From the sequence record LC494302.1: a stretch of 64,000 nucleotides of DNA; one strand, given 5' to 3'. The stretch is from Escherichia phage SP27. The position numbers were made by a program, and so were the translations under genes. Of the stretch, positions 1,197 through 45,820 are shown one piece after another (the stretch's first letter is position 1; each line of letters starts with the position of its first letter). The notes under the pieces are model-generated. The model did not search any database. It was given only the letters and a program-made list of their open reading frames with translations, and was not told where the DNA came from.

Positions 1197-1636
1197 CAGT
1201 ACTGCACCAATTGAAGAAGGTTAAGCATCCAGTTGTATATGAGGACTGGAAACGTCAGAAGCTGATGGGTGATTTTTATTTCCCAAAATCTAAAGTACTA
1301 GCAACGTCAAAAGCTATATACTTGAAATATAAGGATGAAGATTGTTTGTGTATTCAAATGGGATTCCATCCTAAAGTTGGTTTGTTTACAACAAATCAAA
1401 CATTTTATAAATTTAGAATTCAAAAAGATACATTTAGTATTCATATCGAAAAGCATGATGTACAAGATACAATTTATCGTGTGGAAAGTGAGCCTTTGAA
1501 TCTTGTTGAGATTCCGTACAATAATTTAGAAGAAATGTACTTTCAGCAGTTGACAATACAAGAAGACTTTGGTATGATAGGACTTCAAGAGTTAGAGATG
1601 ATTAAACAAATTCGTGATATCTACTTTAAGGAGTAA
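1193..1636 (+). CDS. FQxST-motif family protein
   Basis: 147-aa ORF, ATGA coupling; motif LEEMYFQQLTIQED. Confidence 0.7.
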   Translation: MTVLHQLKKVKHPVVYEDWKRQKLMGDFYFPKSKVLATSKAIYLKYKDEDCLCIQMGFHPKVGLFTTNQTFYKFRIQKDTFSIHIEKHDVQDTIYRVESEPLNLVEIPYNNLEEMYFQQLTIQEDFGMIGLQELEMIKQIRDIYFKE

Positions 1637-1638
1637 CT

Positions 1639-1782
1639 ATGCCAGTACGTAACAGTACTTCACGCTTTACGCTTCAACAGAAAGCAGATCTTTTGAATAT
1701 GGCAAACAAAGATTCTAATTTTCACTATCTAGTACTCGGTGGTTCAGTTGAAAAGATTGACCTACGTGAGTGTATGAAATAA
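1639..1782 (+). CDS. small hypothetical protein (47 aa)
   Basis: ATG 5 nt after AAGGAG; fills gap not covered by the 60-aa ORF track. Confidence 0.5.
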   Translation: MPVRNSTSRFTLQQKADLLNMANKDSNFHYLVLGGSVEKIDLRECMK

Positions 1783-6015: not shown

Positions 6016-6408
6016 ATGACTGAATCAGAACTACACGAAATGATAGATTTCATTTATGAAATGGTACAAGATAAAAATAACATCAATACAATTGCATCAG
6101 GCCCAAGACAAATTGGTAACCAAATAACATATTCTTTGTCCTTATGGTTACACCCGTGCATTAAGGTTGATTGTTTGTATTTCCGTCCTGATATTGATGC
6201 TTATTATTTTGTCAATCATGATGCATTAATGAAACCACATAATCGTCCAGTTGATGATACCTTTGTGACACACCCATTTTACCTGGCTGATTCCGAAGAA
6301 GATGAGTTTCAAAAGAACACAACGTTAAGCCCAGGTGAAATTTGCATCCCTTACGTACTTAAAGATAAAATGAATCACATCACAGAAGTTATGAAAACAT
6401 GCTGGTAG
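6016..6408 (+). CDS. FQxST-family protein (divergent)
   Basis: 130 aa; motif DSEEDEFQKNTTLS about 35 aa from C-terminus. Confidence 0.65.
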   Translation: MTESELHEMIDFIYEMVQDKNNINTIASGPRQIGNQITYSLSLWLHPCIKVDCLYFRPDIDAYYFVNHDALMKPHNRPVDDTFVTHPFYLADSEEDEFQKNTTLSPGEICIPYVLKDKMNHITEVMKTCW

Positions 6409-6456
6409 ATGCAATGAAACTCTGATATAATACAAATAATGATAATAAGAGGATAT

Positions 6457-6675
6457 ATGAAATTTATTGATTTTGATATTTCTAAGGCCAAAGAATTATT
6501 TGTAAGAAATGAAGTTTATGATATCATGTTACATAACGGCACTGTACAAGAAGATGTTGTGTTGTTTTCGTTTGATGGTGAAAATCTCGAAACTATATAT
6601 AAATTCAGCAACTTAGATGGTGACTTTTGGGAAACCAGTGCTGTTAAAATGTATAGAATTAAAAAGGAGCATTAA
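6457..6675 (+). CDS. hypothetical protein
   Basis: Tracked ORF trimmed to ATG 6457 behind AAGAGGA; extended -10 TGATATAAT at 6423-6431. Confidence 0.55.
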   Translation: MKFIDFDISKAKELFVRNEVYDIMLHNGTVQEDVVLFSFDGENLETIYKFSNLDGDFWETSAVKMYRIKKEH

Positions 6676-6676
6676 C

Positions 6677-7165
6677 ATGCCAATTCGTGGTGTACCAGAA
6701 CCATTAATGGAAGTTATTAAGCATGTTCGCATTGGAGATCGAGAAGTTAATCTTCGCCGTAATAACATTTATTACTTTAAAACTTCAGAAATGAGTTCTG
6801 TACAGATTGTCATTGGTACATCTATTAAGATTACTCGTGTACTTGATGGTAGTACTGATTTCGTTGAATATAATGTACTTACTAACAAAGTAATACACAC
6901 ATATAAATGGAGTGGGTATAAAACTATTAAGTATGAGTTTGATGTTGCTAGAACTGAAGAAGAACGATTTATGTTAAGTACTATCAATCCAGCAAACTAC
7001 CCTGACCTTGATACATTTTTGCTAATTTTAAAACTGTATAATGAAGCAAATGGGAAAGCGAAGGAGTATGATAGAATTATGTATGAACGCAAAAAAGAAC
7101 GTGCTCAGAAAAGTTATGATCTTTATGATAACCCATATGTAAAATATAATAAGGGGAGAAAATGA
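6677..7165 (+). CDS. hypothetical protein
   Basis: Tracked ORF trimmed to ATG 6677 behind AAGGAG. Confidence 0.65.
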   Translation: MPIRGVPEPLMEVIKHVRIGDREVNLRRNNIYYFKTSEMSSVQIVIGTSIKITRVLDGSTDFVEYNVLTNKVIHTYKWSGYKTIKYEFDVARTEEERFMLSTINPANYPDLDTFLLILKLYNEANGKAKEYDRIMYERKKERAQKSYDLYDNPYVKYNKGRK

Positions 7166-7566
7166 ATAACGAAGTTCAAATTATCATAACTCCACCTATA
7201 CAAAGTCTTGATGTATCTATTAGTGATTTTTTAGAAAAATATTATGAATGGTTTAATAATGATAATACCATTTATAATCATTCATTACCAGATGGTTTCG
7301 TGGAGCTTATCGAATTAAATTCAAAATCACTATACTTCTGTGTTGAATACAATGATTATATGACAGATGAAGATTATCGCTTTCGTTGTACATTGTATCC
7401 GAATTATTTTTCAATAGGTTATAAAGATTACCAGTACTGTACCACTAACTATAGTGTTGAGGAAGAATTTCAGTACAATTTACTTTATCCTGATTTAGAT
7501 TATACGATTGCAGTACTGTTGACTAAAATCATGGATTTTTATAAAGATAAATATAATGCAGCCTAA
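7162..7566 (+). CDS. FQxST-family protein (divergent)
   Basis: 134 aa, ATGA coupling; motif SVEEEFQYNLLYPD. Confidence 0.65.
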   Translation: MNNEVQIIITPPIQSLDVSISDFLEKYYEWFNNDNTIYNHSLPDGFVELIELNSKSLYFCVEYNDYMTDEDYRFRCTLYPNYFSIGYKDYQYCTTNYSVEEEFQYNLLYPDLDYTIAVLLTKIMDFYKDKYNAA

Positions 7567-7741
7567 GACATTTGATGAGTGGTTTAATCTACACTATAAT
7601 ATAAATGCAGCAGATATATACTATTTTAAGCTTGAATTGTATATATCATTGCGTAACCCAATTGAGTACTATAACAACATTATCAATTGTGATGATTTTG
7701 GTACATATTTTAGTATAGCCGTTATGGATATTAAGAGATGA
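7556..7741 (+). CDS. hypothetical protein
   Basis: 61-aa ORF overlapping neighbours by a few nt. Confidence 0.5.
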   Translation: MQPKTFDEWFNLHYNINAADIYYFKLELYISLRNPIEYYNNIINCDDFGTYFSIAVMDIKR

Positions 7742-7917
7742 CACATGAAGAATGGATGGCAATGATGAAAAAACGTTATGACCAGTTTGGAAATGGATTT
7801 ATTGATGGTCATTTCGATATTTTACGAGACAAATATAAGTTCGAATCATATGTACTAGATGAGAATGGAAATCGTTGGTTCATCTATGAGCTTGCGGTTA
7901 GAGACAAAAAAATATAA
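7738..7917 (+). CDS. MTHEEW-family small protein (59 aa)
   Basis: Own translation MTHEEWMAMMKKRYDQFGNGF...WFIYELAVRDKKI; paralog of 7996, 8515, 9503, 9664. Confidence 0.6.
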   Translation: MTHEEWMAMMKKRYDQFGNGFIDGHFDILRDKYKFESYVLDENGNRWFIYELAVRDKKI

Positions 7918-7919
7918 TA

Positions 7920-7995
7920 ACCTTTTCCATTGTCCATTGCAATGCTTTCTTTACAGAAGAATAAATGAAACACTTAATTGAACTGGATACATAAA
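7920..7995 (+). pseudogene. remnant of a paralog of gene 8298..8513 (3' end only)
   Basis: Aligns to the last ~70 nt of 8298..8513 but has an in-frame TAA and no 5' part. Confidence 0.45.
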
Positions 7996-8172
7996 ATGAC
8001 ACATGAAGAATGGATAGAGTCACTAAAATATAAACATGATCATTTTGGATTTGGTATACGCCAAGGCCATTATGATGTTTTGAACGATAAAAAAACGTTC
8101 GAATCATTGGTTTTGGACGAAGATTCCAACCACTGGTTCATCTACGAGCTTGCTATTAGAGATAAAAAATAG
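7996..8172 (+). CDS. MTHEEW-family small protein
   Basis: Tracked ORF trimmed to MTHEEWIESL...; start context conserved with 8515. Confidence 0.65.
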   Translation: MTHEEWIESLKYKHDHFGFGIRQGHYDVLNDKKTFESLVLDEDSNHWFIYELAIRDKK

Positions 8173-8177
8173 TAAGA

Positions 8178-8513
<336 letters not shown>

Positions 8514-38450: not shown

Positions 38451-38774
38451 ATGTGTAATGACATTGAAAGTACTAAAACAATTTATTATAATAATGAACG
38501 TAACTATCGTTTTCATAATTTAACCACAAATAAAAGTTTACTATTTTACAATTGTAAAGAAGTAATACTCCCATCAGACAATAGCTGTACTCCAACTAAT
38601 CAACCCCCAGCACAATGTAATACTCCCTCTGAACCTGATAAAAATAAAAAAGACAAAGATAAAGATAAAAAAGAAGACAAAAAACCTTTAAAAGATAAAA
38701 AGAAAGATAAAAAACCTAATCCGTTTAAAAATAATAAACCAGCACAACCCGATATGACGTGTAAAATAAAATAA
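38451..38774 (+). CDS. hypothetical protein with K/D-rich low-complexity tail
   Basis: ATG 38451; no clear SD; PDKNKKDKDKDKKEDKKPLKDKKKDKK tract. Confidence 0.45.
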   Translation: MCNDIESTKTIYYNNERNYRFHNLTTNKSLLFYNCKEVILPSDNSCTPTNQPPAQCNTPSEPDKNKKDKDKDKKEDKKPLKDKKKDKKPNPFKNNKPAQPDMTCKIK

Positions 38775-38783
38775 GGATATATA

Positions 38784-39203
38784 ATGAAAAAGATTTTTTT
38801 AAGTATTATTTTAGTACTTTTTAGTTTTAATGTATATGCAGCAGATGCTAAACAGGTTGCTAATACAGTAAAAGATGTTATAGTAGACAATGCTCCTACC
38901 TTAGAGGAAATTGGGGTAAAAACTTGTGATATAGTAATATATAATTTAGTTAATGATGAACGAGTTATGTTGAATACGTATGAACAAGTAGTCCCATTGG
39001 TTGAATCTGGTGATGCTTTTAGCTTTACATATAAAGTTAAATTAACAGGAGGGGTTGAAGTTAATCTTGACATTGATACCGCTTCAGTACTAAAAGATAA
39101 ACTAGGATATGTGTTCAATCGTATTCGTGAAGAAGGTCATCTTAAGTATGTTTATGAAAGTAAAATACTAAAACGTGCAATAGTTATAGAAAACTGTAAA
39201 TGA
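38784..39203 (+). CDS. secreted protein
   Basis: AAGGA SD; signal peptide ...SFNVYA-ADAK; antisense 172-aa ORF judged spurious. Confidence 0.65.
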   Translation: MKKIFLSIILVLFSFNVYAADAKQVANTVKDVIVDNAPTLEEIGVKTCDIVIYNLVNDERVMLNTYEQVVPLVESGDAFSFTYKVKLTGGVEVNLDIDTASVLKDKLGYVFNRIREEGHLKYVYESKILKRAIVIENCK

Positions 39204-39212
39204 TAATAAAAG

Positions 39213-39244
39213 GGTTGACTTCGGTCAGCCTTTTTTGTTATGAT
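39213..39244 (+). promoter_or_regulatory. fused terminator/early-promoter cassette
   Basis: GGTTGAC-TTCG-GTCAGCC, T6, TATGAT 18 nt after TTGACT. Confidence 0.65.
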
Positions 39245-39272
39245 GTTGATATTAACTACAGAGGATAAAGTA

Positions 39273-39914
39273 ATGACTAAGCAAGAAATATTCAAAACTT
39301 TAATTGACATTTTGCGTCCATCAAAAACTCGTTGTGCGATGGAGTTTGATATTCCTTATGCTGAACGCGTAATCTTTCCACAAGTTAAAGCTGCTGGACT
39401 TACTTTGCTTGGAATGGGGATGTACTCTGTAGTAGTTGAACATAAAAACTATCCTGGACGAGCATTTAAAGTAACCACTTCACGCTGGGATGGTTTTCGT
39501 GCTTATGCAAAGTACTGCATTGAAAACGCAGGAACCAAGTTTCTTCCAGTGATCTACAGTGCCAACGAACAAGGAAACTTTGGATGGTATGAGATGGACA
39601 AGTACTATCCTATAATTAAACAAAAAAATAATTATGATGACTTTGTTAGTACTAAAATTGGAGATTTATATTCTTATGCACATGCTGGTCAGTACGCTAC
39701 TTCAGTGAATGATATGCGTGGAAATTCTGAAGAGATTGCTATTGCGACGGTCGCTGCTAACATCATGAAAGAGTTTCACGGGCGTTTTGTACCAGACATT
39801 CATTCAAGTAATGTAATGATGGATAAAGATGGGAATGTATTCATTACTGATCCTCTTTCGTGTGATGTGCGTAGAGAAATACCAATTACTGAAGAAGATC
39901 CAGTTTTTTATTGA
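39273..39914 (+). CDS. protein-kinase-like fold protein (APH/LPS-kinase type)
   Basis: Trimmed to ATG 39273 (downstream of cassette -10); RAFKV lysine, catalytic DIHSSNVMMDKDGNVFITDP resembles D-L-H-x-G-N ... I-D. Confidence 0.6.
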   Translation: MTKQEIFKTLIDILRPSKTRCAMEFDIPYAERVIFPQVKAAGLTLLGMGMYSVVVEHKNYPGRAFKVTTSRWDGFRAYAKYCIENAGTKFLPVIYSANEQGNFGWYEMDKYYPIIKQKNNYDDFVSTKIGDLYSYAHAGQYATSVNDMRGNSEEIAIATVAANIMKEFHGRFVPDIHSSNVMMDKDGNVFITDPLSCDVRREIPITEEDPVFY

Positions 39915-39939
39915 CAGAACTGATGTTCTGATGTATTCT
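39911..39939 (+). promoter_or_regulatory. sigma70-like promoter
   Basis: TTGACA-17 nt-TATTCT overlapping stop of 39273..39914. Confidence 0.5.
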
Positions 39940-39975
39940 TAATAAACCATAAAAATTGCGGTAAAGGATAAAATC

Positions 39976-40257
39976 ATGCGTTCATTTGAAAACTTAATAG
40001 GTAAGCATCTTTTATCTGAAATTGATGCAGACGTTAAAGAATTATCCAAATCAAAAAGTTACATTCATTTGGATGAACTATTTGTTAAGTACGGTGAGAT
40101 TGGTTTTAAGTCATTATTTGTTTTTACTATGAAAGTACATAGTTTAAAGTACTTCGATTTGAGTGCTAAAGATGGTGAACCGAATCTATATTACATGTAT
40201 TACCTTAAGAACAAAGATGAAGCTAATACATTACTCTCTGAATATATATTGGGGTAA
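39976..40257 (+). CDS. hypothetical protein
   Basis: 93 aa, AAGGA SD. Confidence 0.6.
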   Translation: MRSFENLIGKHLLSEIDADVKELSKSKSYIHLDELFVKYGEIGFKSLFVFTMKVHSLKYFDLSAKDGEPNLYYMYYLKNKDEANTLLSEYILG

Positions 40258-40259
40258 AA

Positions 40260-40598
40260 ATGGAACAATATTTTGAATTAATAAACAAAGTATCATTTTA
40301 TGTAGTATCTTTGGTTTGGGTGTATTATATGTTTTGCTACATTATTGCATTCTTCCGATACACTACTTTATATGAACGTATCTACTATGATGCCCCAATT
40401 TCATTCTTGATGTTTTGTGCATGTACGTGGGGAATATTAGAAGTACTGATATGTGGGTATAGTACTGATGAATTAAATCTGGTATCGGTCTTGACTGGGT
40501 TTTCATTTGTTGTTATGATAGCTGCCGTTCCAGTATGGTTGTTCTTTGGACTAGTTCATCGCATTGATATATGGCGTTCTAATATCCCTGAAAAGTAA
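40260..40598 (+). CDS. small multi-pass membrane protein, family TM-R.N.P (member 1)
   Basis: 112 aa, ~3-4 TM; C-terminus RSNIPEK. Confidence 0.7.
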   Translation: MEQYFELINKVSFYVVSLVWVYYMFCYIIAFFRYTTLYERIYYDAPISFLMFCACTWGILEVLICGYSTDELNLVSVLTGFSFVVMIAAVPVWLFFGLVHRIDIWRSNIPEK

Positions 40599-40607
40599 GG
40601 ATTGGTA

Positions 40608-40949
40608 ATGATTTATTACACTAACATGTTTGCCTATGCTGTTGCTTGCATTTACATTGTTTACTTCTTATTTGGTGGAGTACTGTGCTTCTTTAAGTAC
40701 AAAACGTTGTTCAACCGAATGTACCCAAATCATCCAATTGTAGTTGTACTTTTGATTCTTTCAGTTTCTCAAATAATCGTTGAAACTACAATGGGTATCA
40801 GTAGTGTACATTATAGTTTTGGTACTATAGTAATTATTACTATGCTTATTGCATACATTTTAGTACTTGGATATGGTATCTTTGGTAATATTGGTATGAA
40901 AATGTATCATCGAATTAAAACATTACGTGATAATCTACCGGAGCGTTGA
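40608..40949 (+). CDS. small multi-pass membrane protein, same family (member 2)
   Basis: ATG 40608 behind AAGGAT; C-terminus RDNLPER. Confidence 0.7.
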   Translation: MIYYTNMFAYAVACIYIVYFLFGGVLCFFKYKTLFNRMYPNHPIVVVLLILSVSQIIVETTMGISSVHYSFGTIVIITMLIAYILVLGYGIFGNIGMKMYHRIKTLRDNLPER

Positions 40950-40950
40950 T

Positions 40951-41295
40951 ATGTATAATTTGAACCTAATCTCATATATTATAACAACACTGTTTACATT
41001 CTATGCCTTTGTTGGTATAATCCTACTGTACTTTAAATTTTATAAAGTGTTTAACCGTTTCTATCCTTCAATGGAGAATGAGTTTTTCTTTGTGTTGTAC
41101 GTATGTTACACATTCATGGCTACATGTTTCACTGTAGTCGATGGTGTCATCGGCATTAAAACTGCTGCACCAAATGGTAGTACGCTGGTTGCATTTATTC
41201 TTACCGGATTCCTTGCAACTTATATTGCCTTCATTGCAACATGGTCAGTGGTTGAATTTCTCTTGCGACTACGAAAGAATATGCCGAATCGATAG
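40951..41295 (+). CDS. small multi-pass membrane protein, same family (member 3)
   Basis: ATG 40951 behind GGAG; C-terminus RKNMPNR. Confidence 0.7.
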   Translation: MYNLNLISYIITTLFTFYAFVGIILLYFKFYKVFNRFYPSMENEFFFVLYVCYTFMATCFTVVDGVIGIKTAAPNGSTLVAFILTGFLATYIAFIATWSVVEFLLRLRKNMPNR

Positions 41296-41304
41296 GAGAC
41301 ATAT

Positions 41305-41559
41305 ATGTTTGCATTGCGTAACAAAAACACTAAAGAAATATTATGTTTAGATACCGTATGGGATTGTGCGGGATCAACTACAGTTCTTGAAGAAGGAACT
41401 GGATATTGCGTGTTTGTTGTACATGATAGGAATGAACTCGAATTATTACTTGCTGAGTTCAATGCTGGTGGTAATCCTAACAGTACTGAATACCCTGAGA
41501 TTATCAATCCAGCACCACCAGGCTCTTATGAAATTCTACAACTGTGGGAGTTGAAGTAA
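41305..41559 (+). CDS. hypothetical protein (paralog of 43431)
   Basis: 84 aa, AGGAGA SD; MFALRNKN.. versus MYALYNKE.. Confidence 0.6.
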   Translation: MFALRNKNTKEILCLDTVWDCAGSTTVLEEGTGYCVFVVHDRNELELLLAEFNAGGNPNSTEYPEIINPAPPGSYEILQLWELK

Positions 41560-41939
41560 TGCGTCAAATGCACAAAGTAACCGAGCTAAACAAGCGTCTG
41601 GTTAAACAATCAATGTTCGAGGATAAAGAGTCTTATTATAACTTTAAACGTGCAGTAGAGGCTGCTATCCACATTCAGAAGCTTAAAGAACGTGGTTGTA
41701 TTATTCTGGAAAATGGTTCGGAAGTTGTAACGGATGACTTTAGTGTAGCGTTTGATGTTTCACCTGACGGGACGCTATCAATGCCCCGCTTAGGAACTGG
41801 AAACATGACTGTTTGGGTTGGCTTCACTATGGGGAATGTACCTGGTACTGTGTACGTAGATGATGCGGAATTGAAAGACAGTTTCAAAAACTTATCGTAC
41901 CTTGAACCACAATACGCACATGAAATGAATTTATTTTGA
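41559..41939 (+). CDS. hypothetical protein
   Basis: Trimmed to ATG 41559 (TAATG coupling, GGGAG SD). Confidence 0.6.
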   Translation: MRQMHKVTELNKRLVKQSMFEDKESYYNFKRAVEAAIHIQKLKERGCIILENGSEVVTDDFSVAFDVSPDGTLSMPRLGTGNMTVWVGFTMGNVPGTVYVDDAELKDSFKNLSYLEPQYAHEMNLF

Positions 41940-41940
41940 G

Positions 41941-41998
41941 TTGACAAACACATTCAGTACTGTATAATGTTTATCAAGGGGATGAACTTCTCATCCCC
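41941..41998 (+). promoter_or_regulatory. early promoter with CAGTACTG dyad followed by stem-loop
   Basis: TTGACA-aacacatTCAGTACTG-TATAAT, then GGGGATGA-ACTTC-TCATCCCC. Confidence 0.6.
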
Positions 41999-42015
41999 AC
42001 AATCGAGGAATTGTC

Positions 42016-42570
42016 ATGATTACTTTTAAGAAAACTGCTAACCACATCCATGAAATCTACATTAACGGTCACAAAGCTGGCCTTCTTCGTTTACTCGCCC
42101 ATCACCCTGATGCTACCGTATCTGATAATGAACCTAAAGATTGGCGTGTCTTTTTCTTTGGAAAGTACAGTGATTTTCAAGTATCAAACCTGAAGAACAT
42201 TCGTTCAGTATGCACGTTAACTGAAATTAAAGAAAAGTTAGCACAAGCATTGAAAACTAATCCAGATGGTGTTCTTCCACCTGATAACTTTGTAGAGAAA
42301 GGTTATGCCTTAGCTCATTTCAAAGATGGTACTATTCAATCTATCAGTACTGAATATGAATATCATTGGACTGAGTACTTCACTTATGGTTCGAGTAATA
42401 CATTGATGGATTCACGTAGTAAATTGGAAGAAGTACTGACTCGTATGAATGAACGCGAGCGTCAGTTATATGACAAACCAGAAATGTGGAGTTCAACTTA
42501 CATTGACCGTATTGACTATGTTATTATGACTCCAATCTTTGACACTGCTTACTATGATTCTTTGAAATAA
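42016..42570 (+). CDS. hypothetical protein
   Basis: 184 aa, GAGGAA SD. Confidence 0.65.
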   Translation: MITFKKTANHIHEIYINGHKAGLLRLLAHHPDATVSDNEPKDWRVFFFGKYSDFQVSNLKNIRSVCTLTEIKEKLAQALKTNPDGVLPPDNFVEKGYALAHFKDGTIQSISTEYEYHWTEYFTYGSSNTLMDSRSKLEEVLTRMNERERQLYDKPEMWSSTYIDRIDYVIMTPIFDTAYYDSLK

Positions 42571-42581
42571 GGATAACTTAT

Positions 42582-42758
42582 ATGAAACTACGTACTCGTA
42601 ATCGACTGATGGATGCACTGTACCATGAACAGCTTTCACTGAATGAAGTGAAGCGTCAGTTAATGTACACATATCAGTTTCCCGCTCGCATTGCAAAACA
42701 ACGTGCTAAAGAATTGCTGAAAGAAGCAATAGAGTACTGGGAATCTGATTCGTACTAA
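42582..42758 (+). CDS. 58-aa helical basic protein (possible DNA binder)
   Basis: AAGGATA SD; own translation MKLRTRNRLMDALYHEQLSLNEVKRQL...; function speculative. Confidence 0.5.
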   Translation: MKLRTRNRLMDALYHEQLSLNEVKRQLMYTYQFPARIAKQRAKELLKEAIEYWESDSY

Positions 42759-42797
42759 TATTACGTGATATGTCACGTTAATTAAGTGAGGCGATAA

Positions 42798-43049
42798 ATG
42801 AAAATATTATTAGTTCTAATACTACTAATAGTTTTACCATTTACTTTAGTATCCCCTGGACTTGCATGGAATGTATTTGTGTACTTAGTATGTACTATTG
42901 TAGTAAATGGTATCTTGTTCTTAGTTCTATTCATAAATGGAATAGGACACGGTGGAGGATGGACCAGTACTGCTGATATCGTACATAAAACCACTATGTC
43001 TTTATTTGTAATGTGGAATTTGTTCTGGACTTGGTTTGTGTTCTTCTAA
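42798..43049 (+). CDS. small membrane protein
   Basis: 83 aa, 3 TM helices, GTGAGG SD. Confidence 0.6.
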   Translation: MKILLVLILLIVLPFTLVSPGLAWNVFVYLVCTIVVNGILFLVLFINGIGHGGGWTSTADIVHKTTMSLFVMWNLFWTWFVFF

Positions 43050-43057
43050 TTAAAAAT

Positions 43058-43429
43058 ATGAATATAGATTTGAAAGGTGCAACCCGAACTGTTATCCTCA
43101 TTGGGGAATACGCTATCAAGATTCCAACCTTCAAAAGCTGGAAGTTATTCCTAACTGGAATGATAGCTAACCTCAATGAACGTTCATGGATGCAGTACTC
43201 CAATCGTAGTGATAGTGGTATCTGCCCTACTTTGTGGTCATCATGTACAGGACTAGTAACTGTACAGAAACGTTGTAAGCCAGTTCAACATAGGGGTTTA
43301 TTTTGGGTGGAGTTGTGTGCTTTAGCATTGAATTCAGAGTTAAGTACTGACTTCTTTTATTCAGATGCGAAGCCAGAAAACTTTGGTTATCTGAATGGTA
43401 AGTTAGTTAAACTTGATTATGGAGATTAA
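43058..43429 (+). CDS. minimal protein-kinase-like protein (123 aa)
   Basis: Trimmed to ATG 43058; YAIKIP lysine, catalytic DAKPENFG, DYG (DFG-like) at extreme C-terminus. Confidence 0.6.
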   Translation: MNIDLKGATRTVILIGEYAIKIPTFKSWKLFLTGMIANLNERSWMQYSNRSDSGICPTLWSSCTGLVTVQKRCKPVQHRGLFWVELCALALNSELSTDFFYSDAKPENFGYLNGKLVKLDYGD

Positions 43430-43430
43430 G

Positions 43431-43700
43431 ATGTACGCACTGTATAATAAAGAAAAGAAACGATTTGCTAAGGTTGAAATTTCGATTGATACCTTTGATA
43501 TGTTGGAGTACTGTATTGTGACGGACCTATATGCTAACTTGTATTACGTTCTTGATGACGTATCAGTACTGCAACGATTGCTTGAGAATTCCAAAAGTCA
43601 ATGCCAGGGCATCCATGATGGTTCATCTTATGAAACACCTGAGTGTTCCTACGGCTATCTGGACGGGTATGAGATTGTGAAGTTGGGGATTGTTGAATAA
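43431..43700 (+). CDS. hypothetical protein (paralog of 41305)
   Basis: Trimmed to ATG 43431 behind TGGAGA. Confidence 0.55.
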   Translation: MYALYNKEKKRFAKVEISIDTFDMLEYCIVTDLYANLYYVLDDVSVLQRLLENSKSQCQGIHDGSSYETPECSYGYLDGYEIVKLGIVE

Positions 43701-43706
43701 AGAAAA

Positions 43707-43739
43707 GGGTTGACTACGGTCAGCCCTTTTTGCTATAAT
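43707..43739 (+). promoter_or_regulatory. fused terminator/early-promoter cassette
   Basis: GGGTTGAC-TACG-GTCAGCCC, T5, TATAAT 18 nt after TTGACT. Confidence 0.7.
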
Positions 43740-43767
43740 CATTTCATCGAAACGAGAGGATGAATAC

Positions 43768-44283
43768 ATGACACGCATTAACTTAGTACACGTTAAAGAA
43801 CTTGCTGACCAACATCTGATGGCTGAATATCGTGAACTCCCACGTGTATTTGGTGCTGTACAAAAACACGTTCAAGCACGTAAGCGTGTACGTGATTTCA
43901 AAATTAACAGTACTTATCTGTTAGGTTCAGGTCATGTGACATTCTTTTACGACAAGTTGCTGTACTTACAGAAGCGTCATATCGATATTGTTAACGAATG
44001 TTTGCGTCGTGGTATGAAGATTCAAAACACTGAAGTAAACGACATTAGCGGCTTCCCTGCTGAGTTTTGTAATGACTACGTACCAACGGAGTCAGAGATT
44101 AAAATGTCTCGTGATCGTTTGATTGAGAAGCTCCAGATGAAGCCTACGTGGTATAAGTTTACTGATGTTGAATGTCCACAGTACGTTAAAGATATGCAGA
44201 ACGTAAGTAGTAAGAACGAATCTAGTACTGATATGTTCGACGAAATTGAAGAACAAATCAAAGATGAAATGAATAATTATTAA
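43768..44283 (+). CDS. denV: pyrimidine dimer DNA glycosylase (T4 endonuclease V homolog)
   Basis: [30 protein letters not shown]...KRVRDFKI...[10 protein letters not shown] nearly identical to my recollection of T4 EndoV; extra acidic ~35-aa tail. Confidence 0.93.
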
Positions 44284-44289
44284 AGGAAA

Positions 44290-44310
44290 GGGTTGACTTC
44301 GGTTACACAA
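44290..44310 (+). promoter_or_regulatory. degenerate copy of the hairpin/promoter cassette
   Basis: GGGTTGACTTCGGTTAC: left arm and loop kept, right arm and T-run lost. Confidence 0.35.
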
Positions 44311-44321
44311 AGGAACATAAC

Positions 44322-44516
44322 ATGTTATTAGTATATTCAACGCGTTTCTGGATTTCTTTTATTGTACTATCGCTAATCGGCTTCGGTTTGAGTATACTCT
44401 TTTCGTGGGATGAATTGGGTACATGGTATTATGAAGTCCCGTGGTACATGAAGATAGCTCCTTGTTATGCGGCATTGTTCGTGTCATTCCTTATTGTTGT
44501 CTTCAGCGAGGATTAG
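44322..44516 (+). CDS. small membrane protein
   Basis: 64 aa; PWYMKI segment resembles 46911 member (PWYMKV). Confidence 0.55.
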   Translation: MLLVYSTRFWISFIVLSLIGFGLSILFSWDELGTWYYEVPWYMKIAPCYAALFVSFLIVVFSED

Positions 44517-44567
44517 TTGATGTAGTATGTGCTACACCAAAGTATTTGGATATTTTAGATATAAACA

Positions 44568-44596
44568 TTGACACCTGTTATATCTTTCTGTATTAT
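44568..44596 (+). promoter_or_regulatory. sigma70-like early promoter
   Basis: TTGACA-17 nt-TATTAT. Confidence 0.6.
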
Positions 44597-44622
44597 GTAC
44601 ATCACCAAATGAGGAATACAAC

Positions 44623-44982
44623 ATGGCATCTTTAAGTGAAATCGCAGAATACAACCCACTAACAATCTCAACAATTCAACGTACAAAAACTTTTTATTTC
44701 CGTCCTGCTGATGGATGGAAACGTGGAATGAATGGTGACTATCGAGTACTGGAAGATTCACTAATCGAGCGTATCAACTCTGAACTACAGAAGTATGAAG
44801 GTGTTAAAGTTGTGCGTTCAACTTCTCGTTATTTTGAGTACTACATTGAGTCTTCAACTGTAAATGAAAACTCATCATTATCGGTGGACAACACTGATAT
44901 TCTTCGTAATGCAGTTGGTATGTTATGCAACATTGCAGAAGAAATGGGATTAACTATTAGTACTATGAGTGAGTTGGAATAA
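44623..44982 (+). CDS. hypothetical protein
   Basis: 119 aa, GAGGAA SD. Confidence 0.65.
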   Translation: MASLSEIAEYNPLTISTIQRTKTFYFRPADGWKRGMNGDYRVLEDSLIERINSELQKYEGVKVVRSTSRYFEYYIESSTVNENSSLSVDNTDILRNAVGMLCNIAEEMGLTISTMSELE

Positions 44983-44988
44983 CATAAA

Positions 44989-45021
44989 GGGTTGACTTCG
45001 GTCAGCCCTTTTTGCTATAAT
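44989..45021 (+). promoter_or_regulatory. fused terminator/early-promoter cassette
   Basis: GGGTTGAC-TTCG-GTCAGCCC, T5, TATAAT; almost identical to 43707 copy. Confidence 0.7.
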
Positions 45022-45049
45022 TATTTCATCAACTGAAGAGGGTAAAGAA

Positions 45050-45820
45050 ATGACCAGAGAAGCACGCAGCATTCAAATTCAGAAAAACTTCAACTCCATG
45101 ATGGTTGCTCTTGAGTGTTTGCTCGATGATAGCAGTACTGTAAAAAGTATGGTTGTCAGTGGTGCTCCTGGTGTTGGTAAGACTTACACCTTGTCCCAAC
45201 GTCTCCAGAAGGCTCATGACGCAGCAGAATGGAACGTAGCTACTATCAGTGGTAAGATGACTACACTGGCTCTGTACGAAGTTCTGTACAAGAATCGTCA
45301 CAGCACCAACGTGTTAGTACTGGATGATATGGACAGCATCTTTGATTCTGAAGACGGTATGAACCTGCTCAAAGCTGTTTTGGATAGTGGTAAGCGTACT
45401 GTATCTTATATGACTAGCTCTAAGTACTTGAGCACTAACGGCATTCCTAATAGCTTTGATTTTAATGGTCGCATCGTATTCATTACTAACAAAGATTTAG
45501 CGTTAGATGCTAAAGCTAAAACTAAAATGTCTGCTCATTATGCTGCTCTTATGTCTCGTTCTGTGTACGTGGATTTACAGATTCAGACTAAAAGTGATAT
45601 CATGATTCATATTGAAAATGTAATGACTAAGACTAATATCCTTGCATCTAAAGGTGTTAACAGTAACGGTAGTAAAGCAATTCTGAACTGGATGTTAAAA
45701 CATGAAGATAATCTTCGTGCACCATCCCTGCGTATGCCTTTGTTGATTTCAGCAGTATATAACAACAATCCGTATGATTGGGAAGAACAATGTGAAAACT
45801 TGTTCCTTGAGAAAATCTAA
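45050..45820 (+). CDS. P-loop AAA-type ATPase
   Basis: Walker A GAPGVGKT, Walker B VLVLDDMD; 256 aa. Confidence 0.8.
   Translation: MTREARSIQIQKNFNSMMVALECLLDDSSTVKSMVVSGAPGVGKTYTLSQRLQKAHDAAEWNVATISGKMTTLALYEVLYKNRHSTNVLVLDDMDSIFDSEDGMNLLKAVLDSGKRTVSYMTSSKYLSTNGIPNSFDFNGRIVFITNKDLALDAKAKTKMSAHYAALMSRSVYVDLQIQTKSDIMIHIENVMTKTNILASKGVNSNGSKAILNWMLKHEDNLRAPSLRMPLLISAVYNNNPYDWEEQCENLFLEKI

Follow-up and report, generated by a model that had tools for sequence, protein, structure and literature searches.

Two compact kinase-like genes of an Asteriusvirus jumbo coliphage: a T7 kinase homologue and a putative minimal phosphotransferase

Layout of the locus

The window analyzed here is a stretch of 64,000 nucleotides from Escherichia phage SP27 (LC494302.1), an Asteriusvirus jumbo coliphage with ∼98% identity to the phages 121Q, G17, and PBECO4. 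It contains two kinase-like open reading frames, both on the plus strand, referred to here as gene 1 and gene 2 (Table 1). Gene 1 is already annotated as a kinase in GenBank and has been discussed in the literature, whereas gene 2 carries the label "hypothetical" and is an unstudied member of a large phage family. No literature on gene 2 was found.

Table 1. Features of the locus, with positions in the window
Feature	Position	Strand	Description
Hairpin (terminator-like) with embedded sigma-70-type promoter (candidate)	39212..39244	+	GGGTTGACTTCGGTCAGCCT, T-run, TATGAT; 5' of gene 1
Gene 1	39273..39914	+	213 aa; T7 gp0.7 (T7K)-family kinase domain without shut-off domain, by homology
Sigma-70-type promoter (candidate)	41941..41968	+	TTGACA, 16 nt, TATAAT; 12/12 matches (scan, consensus match only)
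Gene 2	43058..43429	+	123 aa; minimal protein-kinase-like core; ends 3 residues after Asp120
ORF downstream of gene 2	43431..43700	+	89 aa; phrog_8563 match; translational coupling via TAA-G-ATG
Hairpin/promoter module closing the block (candidate)	43707..43739	+	GGGTTGACTACGGTCAGCCC, T-run, TATAAT (promoter and hairpin scans)

One pair of hairpin/promoter modules, at 39212 and 43707, bounds both genes. The hairpin motif occurs in 7 copies in the window, compared to 0 expected by chance, and the annotation of G17 places terminators at the positions of both hairpins. The putative promoter 5' of gene 1, with TTGACT and TATGAT separated by 18 nt, shows 10 of 12 consensus matches in the promoter scan, and the candidate module at the other end of the block is predicted to drive the endonuclease V (denV-like) gene. 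A sequence-only reading of this DNA had placed each kinase-like gene in a promoter module of its own. Instead, the two genes share the flanking modules, and the candidate internal promoter, a perfect consensus match, heads a five-gene unit (42016..43700), a possible sub-operon that contains gene 2. Promoter-like sites as a whole are not enriched in the window, with 26 found compared to 31 expected in shuffled sequence.

Gene 1 and the T7 kinase family

The open reading frame of gene 1 extends over 39240..39914, with an internal ATG at 39273 that gives the protein of 213 residues. The internal ATG is the likely start, because the more distant homologues nearly all comprise 211 to 237 residues and begin with MTK or MKK in the alignment, the −10 element of the putative promoter (39239..39244) overlaps the ATG at 39240, and a GAGGA sequence lies 7 nt 5' of the ATG at 39273.

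The motifs named in the sequence-only reading are all found in gene 1: LGMGMYSVVVEH, Lys66 within GRAFKV, the loop DIHSSN (residues 175 to 180, with Asp175, His177, and Asn180), and ITDP, which leads into Asp193-Pro-Leu-Ser196. The proposed assignment to the APH/LPS-kinase type was not borne out. Neither a family-model match to the APH or Kdo/WaaP kinases nor closest similarity to them was found; judged by sequence comparison, gene 1 is a direct homologue of the kinase domain of T7 gp0.7 (T7K), as is already known. BLASTP aligns residues 41 to 196 with residues 68 to 216 of gp0.7 (E value of 6e-9, 27% identity), and Lys66, DIHSSN, and ITDPLS align with RVIKV, DMHSGN, and ITDPVS of T7K. The protein also matches phrog_2828 at 8e-17. 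A tblastn search gives matches in 787 phage records; outside the jumbophage group of gene 1 itself, the matches listed are to ∼40-kb T7-like phages, and many of these records have gp0.7 or a protein kinase annotated at the match. An alignment of 22 homologues shows no variation at Lys66, Asp175, His177, Asn180, and Asp193. Most jumbophage homologues carry Gly or Ala instead of Ser196, the counterpart of Ser216 in T7K.

The shut-off/DNA-binding C-terminal domain is absent from gene 1, the chain of which ends 17 residues past the region aligned with T7K (up to residue 216 of 359). This domain is an accessory of the T7 protein and does not define the kinase domain family. In contrast to the single truncated kinase of the sequence-only reading, gene 1 too stops shortly after its DFG-equivalent residue, with a tail of 20 residues following Asp193. 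T7K has been described as a hyperpromiscuous anti-defense kinase with a kinase domain defined as residues 1 to 242, the Asp being at 213, and with a shut-off/DNA-binding C-terminal domain that directs its activity to nucleic-acid-binding proteins (PMC13645617). The same study lists a protein of jumbophage G17 as a distant T7K homologue without the shut-off domain, notes the loss of this domain from the jumbophage homologues, and reports that the Val of D-P-V is less conserved in the jumbophage homologues (PMC13645617), with which the Leu of gene 1 agrees. The Sharanji orthologue of gene 1, WNN14432.1, has been named a T7 kinase homologue (PMC11895373).

Gene 2 and its family of short kinase-like proteins

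Gene 2 contains the motifs YAIKIP (Lys21) and SDAKPENFG (Asp103 to Asn108) and closes with KLDYGD (Asp120) directly before the stop codon, in line with the earlier description of a kinase that is cut off at its DFG equivalent. This shortness is common to the whole family, which is mostly made up of phage and prophage proteins and comprises 1,206 clusters at 50% identity. The median length is 123 residues, also in 138 representatives, and the tail after the DFG-type Asp shows a median of 3 residues and a 90th percentile of 7 among 257 homologues. On these sequence data, gene 2 shares its small size with its relatives and is not a local truncation. The view of gene 2 as a shortened version of gene 1 had to be abandoned, with no sequence relationship detectable between the two families.

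The short chain could also stem from a broken or split gene, in which case gene 2 would be a truncated remnant or an N-terminal half that is completed by the downstream ORF or by frameshifting. The next ATG indeed lies only one base past the stop codon, the phrog_4301 profile has 225 positions, of which gene 2 covers only 40 to 167, and a few longer relatives exist, such as Kc263 gp027 with 267 residues and P0251 with 257. On the other hand, the median length and tail hold across hundreds of divergent clusters, and the model of the protein on its own is predicted with confidence. The extra tail of Kc263 gp027 gives no NCBIfam match and is unlike a kinase C-lobe sequence. The downstream ORF belongs to phrog_8563, of which a second copy lies in the window at 41305..41559 with no kinase adjoining it, and the ORF is unrelated to the one 3' of the homologue carried by phage G4507. 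Clustering of the neighbors at 29 loci of gene 2 homologues revealed no family common to them and hence no conserved partner gene. As the missing C-lobe, the downstream ORF was rejected because of the phrog_8563 copy elsewhere and the lack of a counterpart beside the homologues. The origin of gene 2 from a broken or split gene is largely refuted and is considered very improbable.

The residues expected for catalysis are near-invariant. Among the 257 homologues, Lys21 is kept in 256, Glu41 in all 257, and Arg10 in 254; position 103 is Asp or Glu in 252, position 108 is Asn or Ser in 251, and Asp120 is found in 254. All five catalytic positions (Lys21, Glu41, Asp/Glu103, Asn/Ser108, and Asp120) occur together in 246 homologues, and the strict K/E/D/N/D form occurs in 182. 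The commonest catalytic loop is D-x-K-P-E-N (for example, DAKPEN in 34 homologues and DVKPEN in 16), with Lys105 in 221/257 and Pro106 in 156/257 and with the His-Arg before the catalytic Asp missing. [quoted passage not shown] Of the 32 homologues without Lys105, 12 have a basic residue (Lys or Arg) at position +1 or +2, compared to 15 of 224 otherwise; the other 20 of the 32 have no replacement nearby. The loss of Lys105 together with a nearby basic residue recalls DLKPEN versus DLAARN, the switch between Ser/Thr and Tyr kinases.

Searches against Pfam, NCBIfam, and PADLOC models gave no match for gene 2; for both genes, PADLOC yields none at an E value of ≤1, and NCBIfam yields nothing meaningful. 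The Pkinase model of Pfam matches none of 97 family members, in which only sub-threshold Pfam matches were obtained, to ABC1 in 6 members and to FAM69 in 5.

The AlphaFold2 model of gene 2 (pLDDT of 93.9 and pTM of 0.83) predicts strands 1 to 5, helix C, helix E, the catalytic loop D103-A-K105-P-E-N108, strands 7 and 8, and D120-Y-G. This order of elements, an N-lobe β-sheet with helix C and then helix E through strand 8, is that of the protein kinase-like (PKL) fold. In a Foldseek search against the PDB, all top 50 matches are kinases (probability of 0.96 to 1.00), with E values of only ∼2e-3, and nearly all structure-search matches of both gene models are kinase-like. The family profile aligns the catalytic loop and DYG with HSDLKPANF...IDFG of TTK; sequence matches to solved kinases are sub-significant, with E values of 0.2 to 1 in profile and single-sequence searches. 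The earlier statement that gene 2 lacks a C-lobe holds for the activation segment, helix F, and all that follows but is too broad for helix E, the catalytic loop, strands 7 and 8, and DYG, which are kept. The chain is too short for an activation segment, APE, and helices F to I (subdomains VIII to XI), and no helix F follows strand 8 in the model, only 3 residues remaining past Asp120. No kinase core as small as gene 2 has been described to date, and an active kinase with its chain end at the DFG motif is not known to us. All kinase-like families are described as containing helix F, which stabilizes the catalytic loop (PMC1261164).

For both genes, it has to be considered that the kinase-like motifs arose by chance and that one or both proteins lack a kinase fold. 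The Pfam kinase models match neither protein, and single-sequence searches of the PDB reach E values of only ∼1 for both, as would be expected in this case. Nevertheless, the motif residues are not there by chance, because they are invariant (gene 1) or near-invariant (gene 2) in the homologues and because both proteins are predicted as confident kinase folds, that of gene 1 with an N-terminal three-helix extension. In both families they form the most conserved columns, and gene 1 matches T7 gp0.7 significantly. Neither of the two outcomes that the sequence-only reading had named as refuting it, a predicted structure with no kinase fold and a lack of motif conservation in homologues, was observed. 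At the level of fold prediction, a chance origin is already refuted and hardly deserves further credit.

Proposed functions and relation to known kinases

The explanation favored here, with an estimated probability of about 0.6, is that the two genes code for reduced enzymes of the kinase fold that are unrelated to each other, a T7K-type kinase and a minimal phosphotransferase cassette, each 3' of host-type (sigma-70-like) candidate promoters. Gene 1 would be the jumbophage form of the T7 kinase, reduced to the kinase domain alone, with a D-x-H-S-x-N loop and with D-P-L replacing DFG. By homology, its most likely activity would be the Ser/Thr phosphorylation of host proteins in the early phase of infection; with the DNA-binding shut-off domain missing, it is probably targeted differently from T7K. 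Members of the gene 2 family contain little beyond the cassette by which a Ser/Thr-type kinase binds ATP and transfers phosphate, with a five-stranded N-lobe, a phosphate-binding loop that includes the near-invariant Arg10, the Lys21-Glu41 pair, helix E, D-x-K-P-E-N, and the magnesium-binding D-Y-G. Such a protein is expected to bind Mg-ATP and to transfer phosphate. Lacking a C-lobe for regulation and substrate docking, it would be constitutively open and then either poorly selective or reliant on a substrate or host protein that completes and stabilizes the active site. The best reading of gene 2 is thus a free-standing, constitutively open minimal phosphotransferase, which probably acts as a protein Ser/Thr kinase on host proteins. 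In phages of very different background, the gene 2 homologues likewise stand by themselves. We infer early expression, protein substrates, and a role in host takeover or anti-defense.

An unlikely alternative is that gene 2 has a kinase fold but transfers no phosphate and instead, as a pseudokinase, scaffold, decoy, or sponge, binds ATP, another nucleotide, or a host protein. Helix F and the entire substrate-binding C-lobe are missing, one sub-clade has Glu/Ser for the catalytic Asp/Asn, and some members have no catalytic-loop Lys. Small phage proteins sequestering signaling nucleotides are a known anti-defense strategy, and an Acb2/Tad1-type gene is part of the module of the gene 2 homologue in an Acinetobacter prophage, a linkage that is not conserved. 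However, residues needed only for the chemistry (Asp, Lys, and Asn of the loop and Asp of DFG) are conserved like the Lys-Glu pair, and the basic residue often found near the lost loop Lys suggests selection for handling of the γ-phosphate.

It is improbable, too, that gene 2 is an active kinase with a non-protein substrate (a small molecule, nucleotide, lipid, sugar, or RNA), comparable to the aminoglycoside kinases or to ArkI, a small archaeal tRNA kinase. In the T4-like phage JS10, the homologue adjoins the RNA ligase gene rnlB, and in the T4-like phage G4507, it is located directly upstream of a tRNA cluster. Because gene 2 offers no peptide-docking platform, a small molecule or a nucleic acid would be a natural substrate. 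Yet this proximity to RNA genes does not recur from locus to locus, and gene 2 has no helical C-terminal subdomain, through which small-molecule kinases normally bind their substrates. The D-x-K-P-E-N loop, which resembles the Hanks subdomain VIb signature of Ser/Thr protein kinases more than that of small-molecule kinases, likewise argues for a protein substrate, as does TTK as the best, sub-significant, sequence-level match.

Under the favored explanation of a T7K-type kinase beside a minimal phosphotransferase, gene 1 compares most directly with T7K, whose family is PHROG 2828 and whose homologues carry PF27024. The two share the catalytic Lys, the D-x-H-S-x-N loop, I-T-D-P-(V/L)-S replacing DFG, the end of the chain or domain soon after the DFG-equivalent motif with no classical C-lobe, and a position 3' of host-type promoters, predicted in the case of gene 1. 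In contrast to T7K, gene 1 lacks the shut-off/DNA-binding C-terminal domain, shows DPL instead of DPV, and has a different N-terminal three-helix extension; the inhibitory autophosphorylation Ser of T7K is not conserved in the jumbophage homologues.

Gene 2 shares the order and spacing of the β-3 Lys, the helix C Glu, the catalytic loop (D-x-K-P-E-N in the commonest form of the family), and D-[FY]-G with Hanks-type Ser/Thr kinases, such as TTK/Mps1 and PknB. Its phosphate-binding loop is G-x-T-R instead of GxGxxG, and it has no His-Arg before the catalytic Asp, no Pfam Pkinase match, and no subdomains VIII to XI. Of the universal kinase-like core, strands 1 to 5, helix C, the linker, helix E, the catalytic loop, and strands 7 and 8 are found again in gene 2; the core closes with helix F in every family then known (PMC1261164), whereas gene 2 stops before it. 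Very small kinase folds without an activation loop are also found in OspG and NleH (PDB 4q5h and 4lrj) and in HopBF1 (6pwd). These are secreted effectors with crystallized chains of 160 to 176 residues, compared to the 123 residues of the phage-borne gene 2, which shows no detectable sequence similarity to them and is not specifically closer to them than to kinases in general. According to its entry title, the OspG structure 4q5h is a complex with an E2-ubiquitin conjugate, and OspG is an earlier example of a minimal kinase functioning in association with a protein of the host.

Genomic setting and transcription signals

The stretch 38500..44500, searched with megablast, matches 49 phage records, 20 of which reach at least 80% query coverage, the closest at ∼98% identity. 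These 20 records are Asteriusvirus jumbo coliphages of ∼350 to 370 kb, e.g., 121Q, PBECO4, G17, Sharanji, and CRJP21. The sequence-only reading had described two ORFs in this stretch, here called gene 1 and gene 2, as protein-kinase-like, the second in a minimal version. Both are found with the motifs attributed to them, and the two-kinase interpretation is supported with the corrections described below. A search of all window ORFs with both family profiles (hmmsearch) reveals no further copy of either gene.

Features of the region containing gene 1 and gene 2, with positions in the window
Feature	Position	Strand	Length	Remarks
Gene 1	39273..39914	+	213 aa	Counterparts 121Q gp205 and G17 G17_00108 (database annotation)
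Gene 2	43058..43429	+	123 aa	Counterparts 121Q gp215 and G17 G17_00098 (database annotation)
First small membrane-protein gene	40260..40598	+		Matches phrog_19285
Second small membrane-protein gene	40602..40949	+
Third small membrane-protein gene	40927..41295	+
phrog_8563 ORF, second copy	41305..41559	+		Same block as gene 2
phrog_8563 ORF downstream of gene 2	43431..43700	+		Translationally coupled to gene 2
Endonuclease V (DenV, T4)-type pyrimidine dimer DNA glycosylase gene	43768..44283	+		Directly 3' of the kinase block
Hairpin copies	33358, 36601, 36784, 38127, 39212, 43707, 44989	+	20 nt each	Motif search
Promoter TTGACA-16-TATAAT, perfect consensus	41941			Heads a five-gene unit including gene 2 (promoter scan)
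Insertion/deletion hotspot	∼44300..45050			Hairpin modules at its bounds
GC skew flip	∼50000			Positive to negative

A hairpin, GGGTTGAC-NN-CGGTCAGCCC, occurs in seven copies on the plus strand, compared to none expected by chance. At the three copies picked up by the promoter scan within the scanned stretch (39212, 43707, and 44989), the hairpin contains a TTGACT −35 hexamer, with a T-run and a TATAAT-like −10 element 3' of it. Gene 1 lies 3' of the first of these, and the second ends the block. The repeated hairpin seems to combine terminator and promoter in one cassette bounding small gene blocks, which we take to resemble the "promoter-early stem-loop" cassettes of some T4-type phages; in G17, the hairpin sites carry only a terminator annotation. 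Promoter-like sites are no more common than in shuffled sequence and all promoter calls are consensus matches only, so early expression of both genes is presumed.

Several further features surround the two genes. The DenV-type gene carries the same annotation in 121Q and G17. Compared to the adjoining hotspot of the window, G17 (positions 6300..8400 of its extracted locus, L002) and Sharanji contain ∼2 kb of extra DNA, including a 372-amino-acid ORF resembling RaK2_00499. The three tandem membrane-protein genes are paralogues of 112 to 122 amino acids with 25 to 29% identity and a common C-terminal R-x-N-x-P-E/N-K/R motif. The GC skew flip near 50 kb suggests a change of coding strand or transcription direction.

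Gene 1 and the T7 kinase

The ORF of gene 1 spans 39240..39914, with the internal start at 39273 being preferred because a GAGGA sequence sits 7 nt 5' of it, because the ATG at 39240 shares bases with the −10 hexamer of the upstream promoter, and because distant homologues in the alignment are almost all 211 to 237 amino acids long, starting with MTK or MKK. The protein contains the motifs LGMGMYSVVVEH, GRAFKV, DIHSSN, and ITDP. It matches phrog_15752 (5e-92) and phrog_2828 (8e-17), the family with T7K, the gp0.7 protein kinase of phage T7, as a member (PMC13645617). A tblastn search with gene 1 matches 787 phage records; the matches listed outside its own jumbophage group are ∼40-kb T7-like phages with 25 to 32% identity, many of them annotated as gp0.7 or protein kinase at the match site. 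Pairwise BLASTP aligns residues 41 to 196 with residues 68 to 216 of T7 gp0.7 (E value of 6e-9), pairing GRAFKV with NRVIKV, DIHSSN with DMHSGN, and ITDPLS with ITDPVS. Lys66, Asp175, His177, Asn180, and Asp193 are invariant among 22 homologues. Gene 1 ends 20 residues past Asp193 and, in contrast to T7K, has no shut-off domain, the C-terminal DNA-binding domain of that enzyme.

Homologues of gene 1 carry PF27024 in the precomputed Pfam column, and the query protein itself has no Pfam match at an E value of ≤10 and none in NCBIfam or PADLOC. Single-sequence and profile searches of PDB sequences return only subsignificant kinase matches for both genes. The annotations of 121Q and G17 label gene 1 a protein kinase. 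An earlier study placed a protein of jumbophage G17 among distant T7K homologues, the shut-off domain being lost and the Val of the DPV motif less conserved (PMC13645617), and the Sharanji orthologue, WNN14432.1, was called a T7 kinase homologue (PMC11895373). Gene 1 is therefore not new, as previous publications already point to this jumbophage T7K homologue, and homology to T7 gp0.7 describes it better than the APH/LPS-kinase type proposed from the sequence alone. Judged by this homology, gene 1 would be a T7K-type Ser/Thr kinase with host proteins as targets; with the DNA-binding domain absent, it is probably targeted differently from T7K. The protein is suited to asking whether kinase hyperpromiscuity outlasts the loss of this domain.

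The study of Sharanji lists a further "protein kinase," WNN14351.1, outside the window (PMC11895373). According to the accession numbers, ∼81 genes separate it from the orthologue of gene 1, and hence it is not gene 2 (WNN14422.1); phages of this group may therefore encode three kinase-like proteins.

The gene 2 family, its predicted fold, and its putative active site

Gene 2 shows the motifs YAIKIP, SDAKPENFG, and KLDYGD, the last followed by the stop codon. Its sole family match is phrog_4301, which has no assigned function. Pfam gives no match to gene 2 at an E value of ≤10; for 97 family members, its matches do not rise above noise. NCBIfam and PADLOC give no match for gene 2 or 97 relatives, and the precomputed Pfam column is empty for the homologues. 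An exhaustive profile search assigns 1,206 clusters (50% identity) to the family at an E value of ≤1e-3 and 639 at ≤1e-10. Homologues are found by tblastn in 122 phage records, including Asteriusvirus, the T4-like phages JS10, IME341, and G4507, jumbo phages of Erwinia, Klebsiella, Pseudomonas, Aeromonas, and Ralstonia, and Pseudomonas siphophages such as PaMx11 and NP1. Across the family as a whole, T4-like, jumbo, and siphophage genomes as well as lambdoid prophages are represented, with Escherichia, Salmonella, Pseudomonas, Aeromonas, Acinetobacter, and others as hosts. Nearly all copies are labeled "hypothetical" and a few "serine/threonine kinase" or "STE family protein kinase catalytic domain"; no literature on the family was found under minimal or truncated phage kinases, phrog_4301, or surveys of kinase-like families. 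Unannotated homologues are present in phAPEC6 (MK817115.1, 22182..22550) and SXP01 (PV593634.1, 16071..16448), and N-terminally truncated copies occur in TH47 and SD-1_S14. The "virion structural protein" label at the match in Shewanella phage SXP01 belongs to a neighboring gene overlapping by 11 nt, and a virion-protein role was rejected. Gene 2 is not a short paralogue of gene 1 (BLASTP E value of 1.7), and hhalign gives its family a probability of kinship of 1% with the gene 1 family and of 0.04% with T7 gp0.7.

The termination at the DFG equivalent, pointed out for the single gene, is a property of the whole family. The top 138 representatives have a median length of 123 amino acids (5th to 95th percentile, 112 to 154), and in a 257-sequence alignment, the DFG-type aspartate, Asp120 in gene 2, is followed by a median of 3 residues (90th percentile, 7). 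This indicates that truncation is the ancestral, selected state and not a local accident. Longer relatives do not support a lost C-lobe: the tail of Kc263 gp027 has no NCBIfam match and appears, by eye, unlike a kinase C-lobe.

The AlphaFold2 model of gene 2 (pLDDT of 93.9 and pTM of 0.83 from a 97-sequence alignment) shows strands at residues 2 to 4, 10 to 15, 18 to 23, 58 to 61, 68 to 71, 109 to 112, and 115 to 118 and helices at 28 to 43 and 79 to 92, with a short one at 97 to 101. The predicted structure corresponds to a kinase N-lobe with helix E, the catalytic loop, and strands 7 and 8. The best 50 Foldseek matches in the PDB are all kinases, namely Lpg2603 and TTK (probability of 0.96 to 1.00, query TM-score of 0.45 to 0.66, E value of ∼2e-3), and a kinase fold is highly probable. 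The family profile sdaKPeNfG...klDyG aligns to HSDLKPANF...IDFG of TTK at an E value of only 0.2 to 1; next to the structural matches, a resemblance to kinases arising by chance is scarcely credible.

Among the 257 sequences, Gly7 (252), Thr/Ser9 (247), Arg10 (254), Lys21 (256), and Glu41 (257) are conserved in the N-terminal part and Asp/Glu103 (252), Lys105 (221), Asn/Ser108 (251), Gly110 (249), and Asp120 (254) in the C-terminal part. The five catalytic positions are jointly kept in 246 of the 257, so the motif residues are conserved in this family as in that of gene 1. Where Lys105 is missing, a Lys or Arg is found 1 to 2 residues further in 12/32 homologues, compared to 15/224 of the others (Fisher's exact test, P = 9e-6, with kinship among the sequences ignored). 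This replacement pattern, reminiscent of the catalytic-loop switch between Ser/Thr and Tyr kinases, suggests selection on phosphate chemistry. Catalysis by gene 2 is reasonably probable, and a noncatalytic binder of a nucleotide or target, with which the absence of Lys105 from some homologues might be reconciled, is unlikely beside the joint retention of the catalytic positions.

Neighborhood and proposed function of gene 2

The coupled ORF downstream of gene 2, which has a paralogue in the same block (84 to 89 amino acids for the two), raises the question of a kinase completed by a second gene product. A split kinase was rejected, as the phrog_8563 ORF has the additional copy and is unrelated to that 3' of the G4507 homologue. 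No counterpart was found beside gene 2 homologues in other phages, and ORF clustering within 2.5 kb at 29 loci yields no shared neighbor family apart from the kinase. A split or broken gene, which the early stop and the coupled ORF might bring to mind, is highly improbable, the short form being common to the family. In Salmonella lambdoid prophages, Rz and terminase Nu1 flank the solitary homologue; Acinetobacter prophages carry it within the head-tail module; an Aquimarina prophage has it 5' of the terminase; and in T4-like phages, it is located in hypervariable early regions, by rnlB or a tRNA cluster. Gene 2 behaves as a self-contained accessory ("moron") gene with no encoded partner. On one Acinetobacter prophage-like contig (L045), an Acb2/Tad1-hairpin family gene (an anti-defense nucleotide sponge; 1318..1650) shares the morphogenesis-module insertion zone with the gene 2 homologue, a linkage that its sibling contigs, L046 and L047, do not preserve.

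Gene 2, the more valuable of the two genes, with gene 1 adding little new, is a minimal kinase core lacking helix F; the phage family to which it belongs is very large and has scarcely been studied. It would be a phosphotransferase that depends on Mg-ATP, and the D-x-K-P-E-N loop favors a protein Ser/Thr kinase as the most likely kind. Action on protein substrates is tentative, at somewhat less than even odds; a kinase for a nonprotein substrate, RNA included, is quite unlikely given this loop. Since it has no activation segment, the protein would be constitutively open and may be either poorly selective or dependent on a substrate or host factor to complete the active site. A bolder reading, with a probability of roughly 0.3, would make gene 2 the smallest known self-sufficient protein kinase, a ∼120-residue core without helix F distributed over well more than a thousand lineages of phages and prophages. 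On this view, it would be a Ser/Thr kinase of loose selectivity that is always active, or its host target would complete it in trans; phages would deploy it alongside the T7K-type kinase, to which it is unrelated, against host defenses or to reprogram host proteins.

T7K was recently shown to be a broad anti-defense weapon (PMC13645617). Hence, a second phage kinase family, unrelated to it and far more widespread, would be an obvious candidate for roles in host takeover or counter-defense. In the classic structural survey (PMC1261164), all kinase-like families compared have helix F as the anchor of the catalytic loop; gene 2 lacks this helix. If active, the family would redefine the minimal phosphotransfer unit, and its 123 residues and confident model make the protein convenient for crystallography, NMR, and design. 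OspG is completed by a bound E2-ubiquitin conjugate, and by analogy, binding of a substrate or host factor might complete gene 2.
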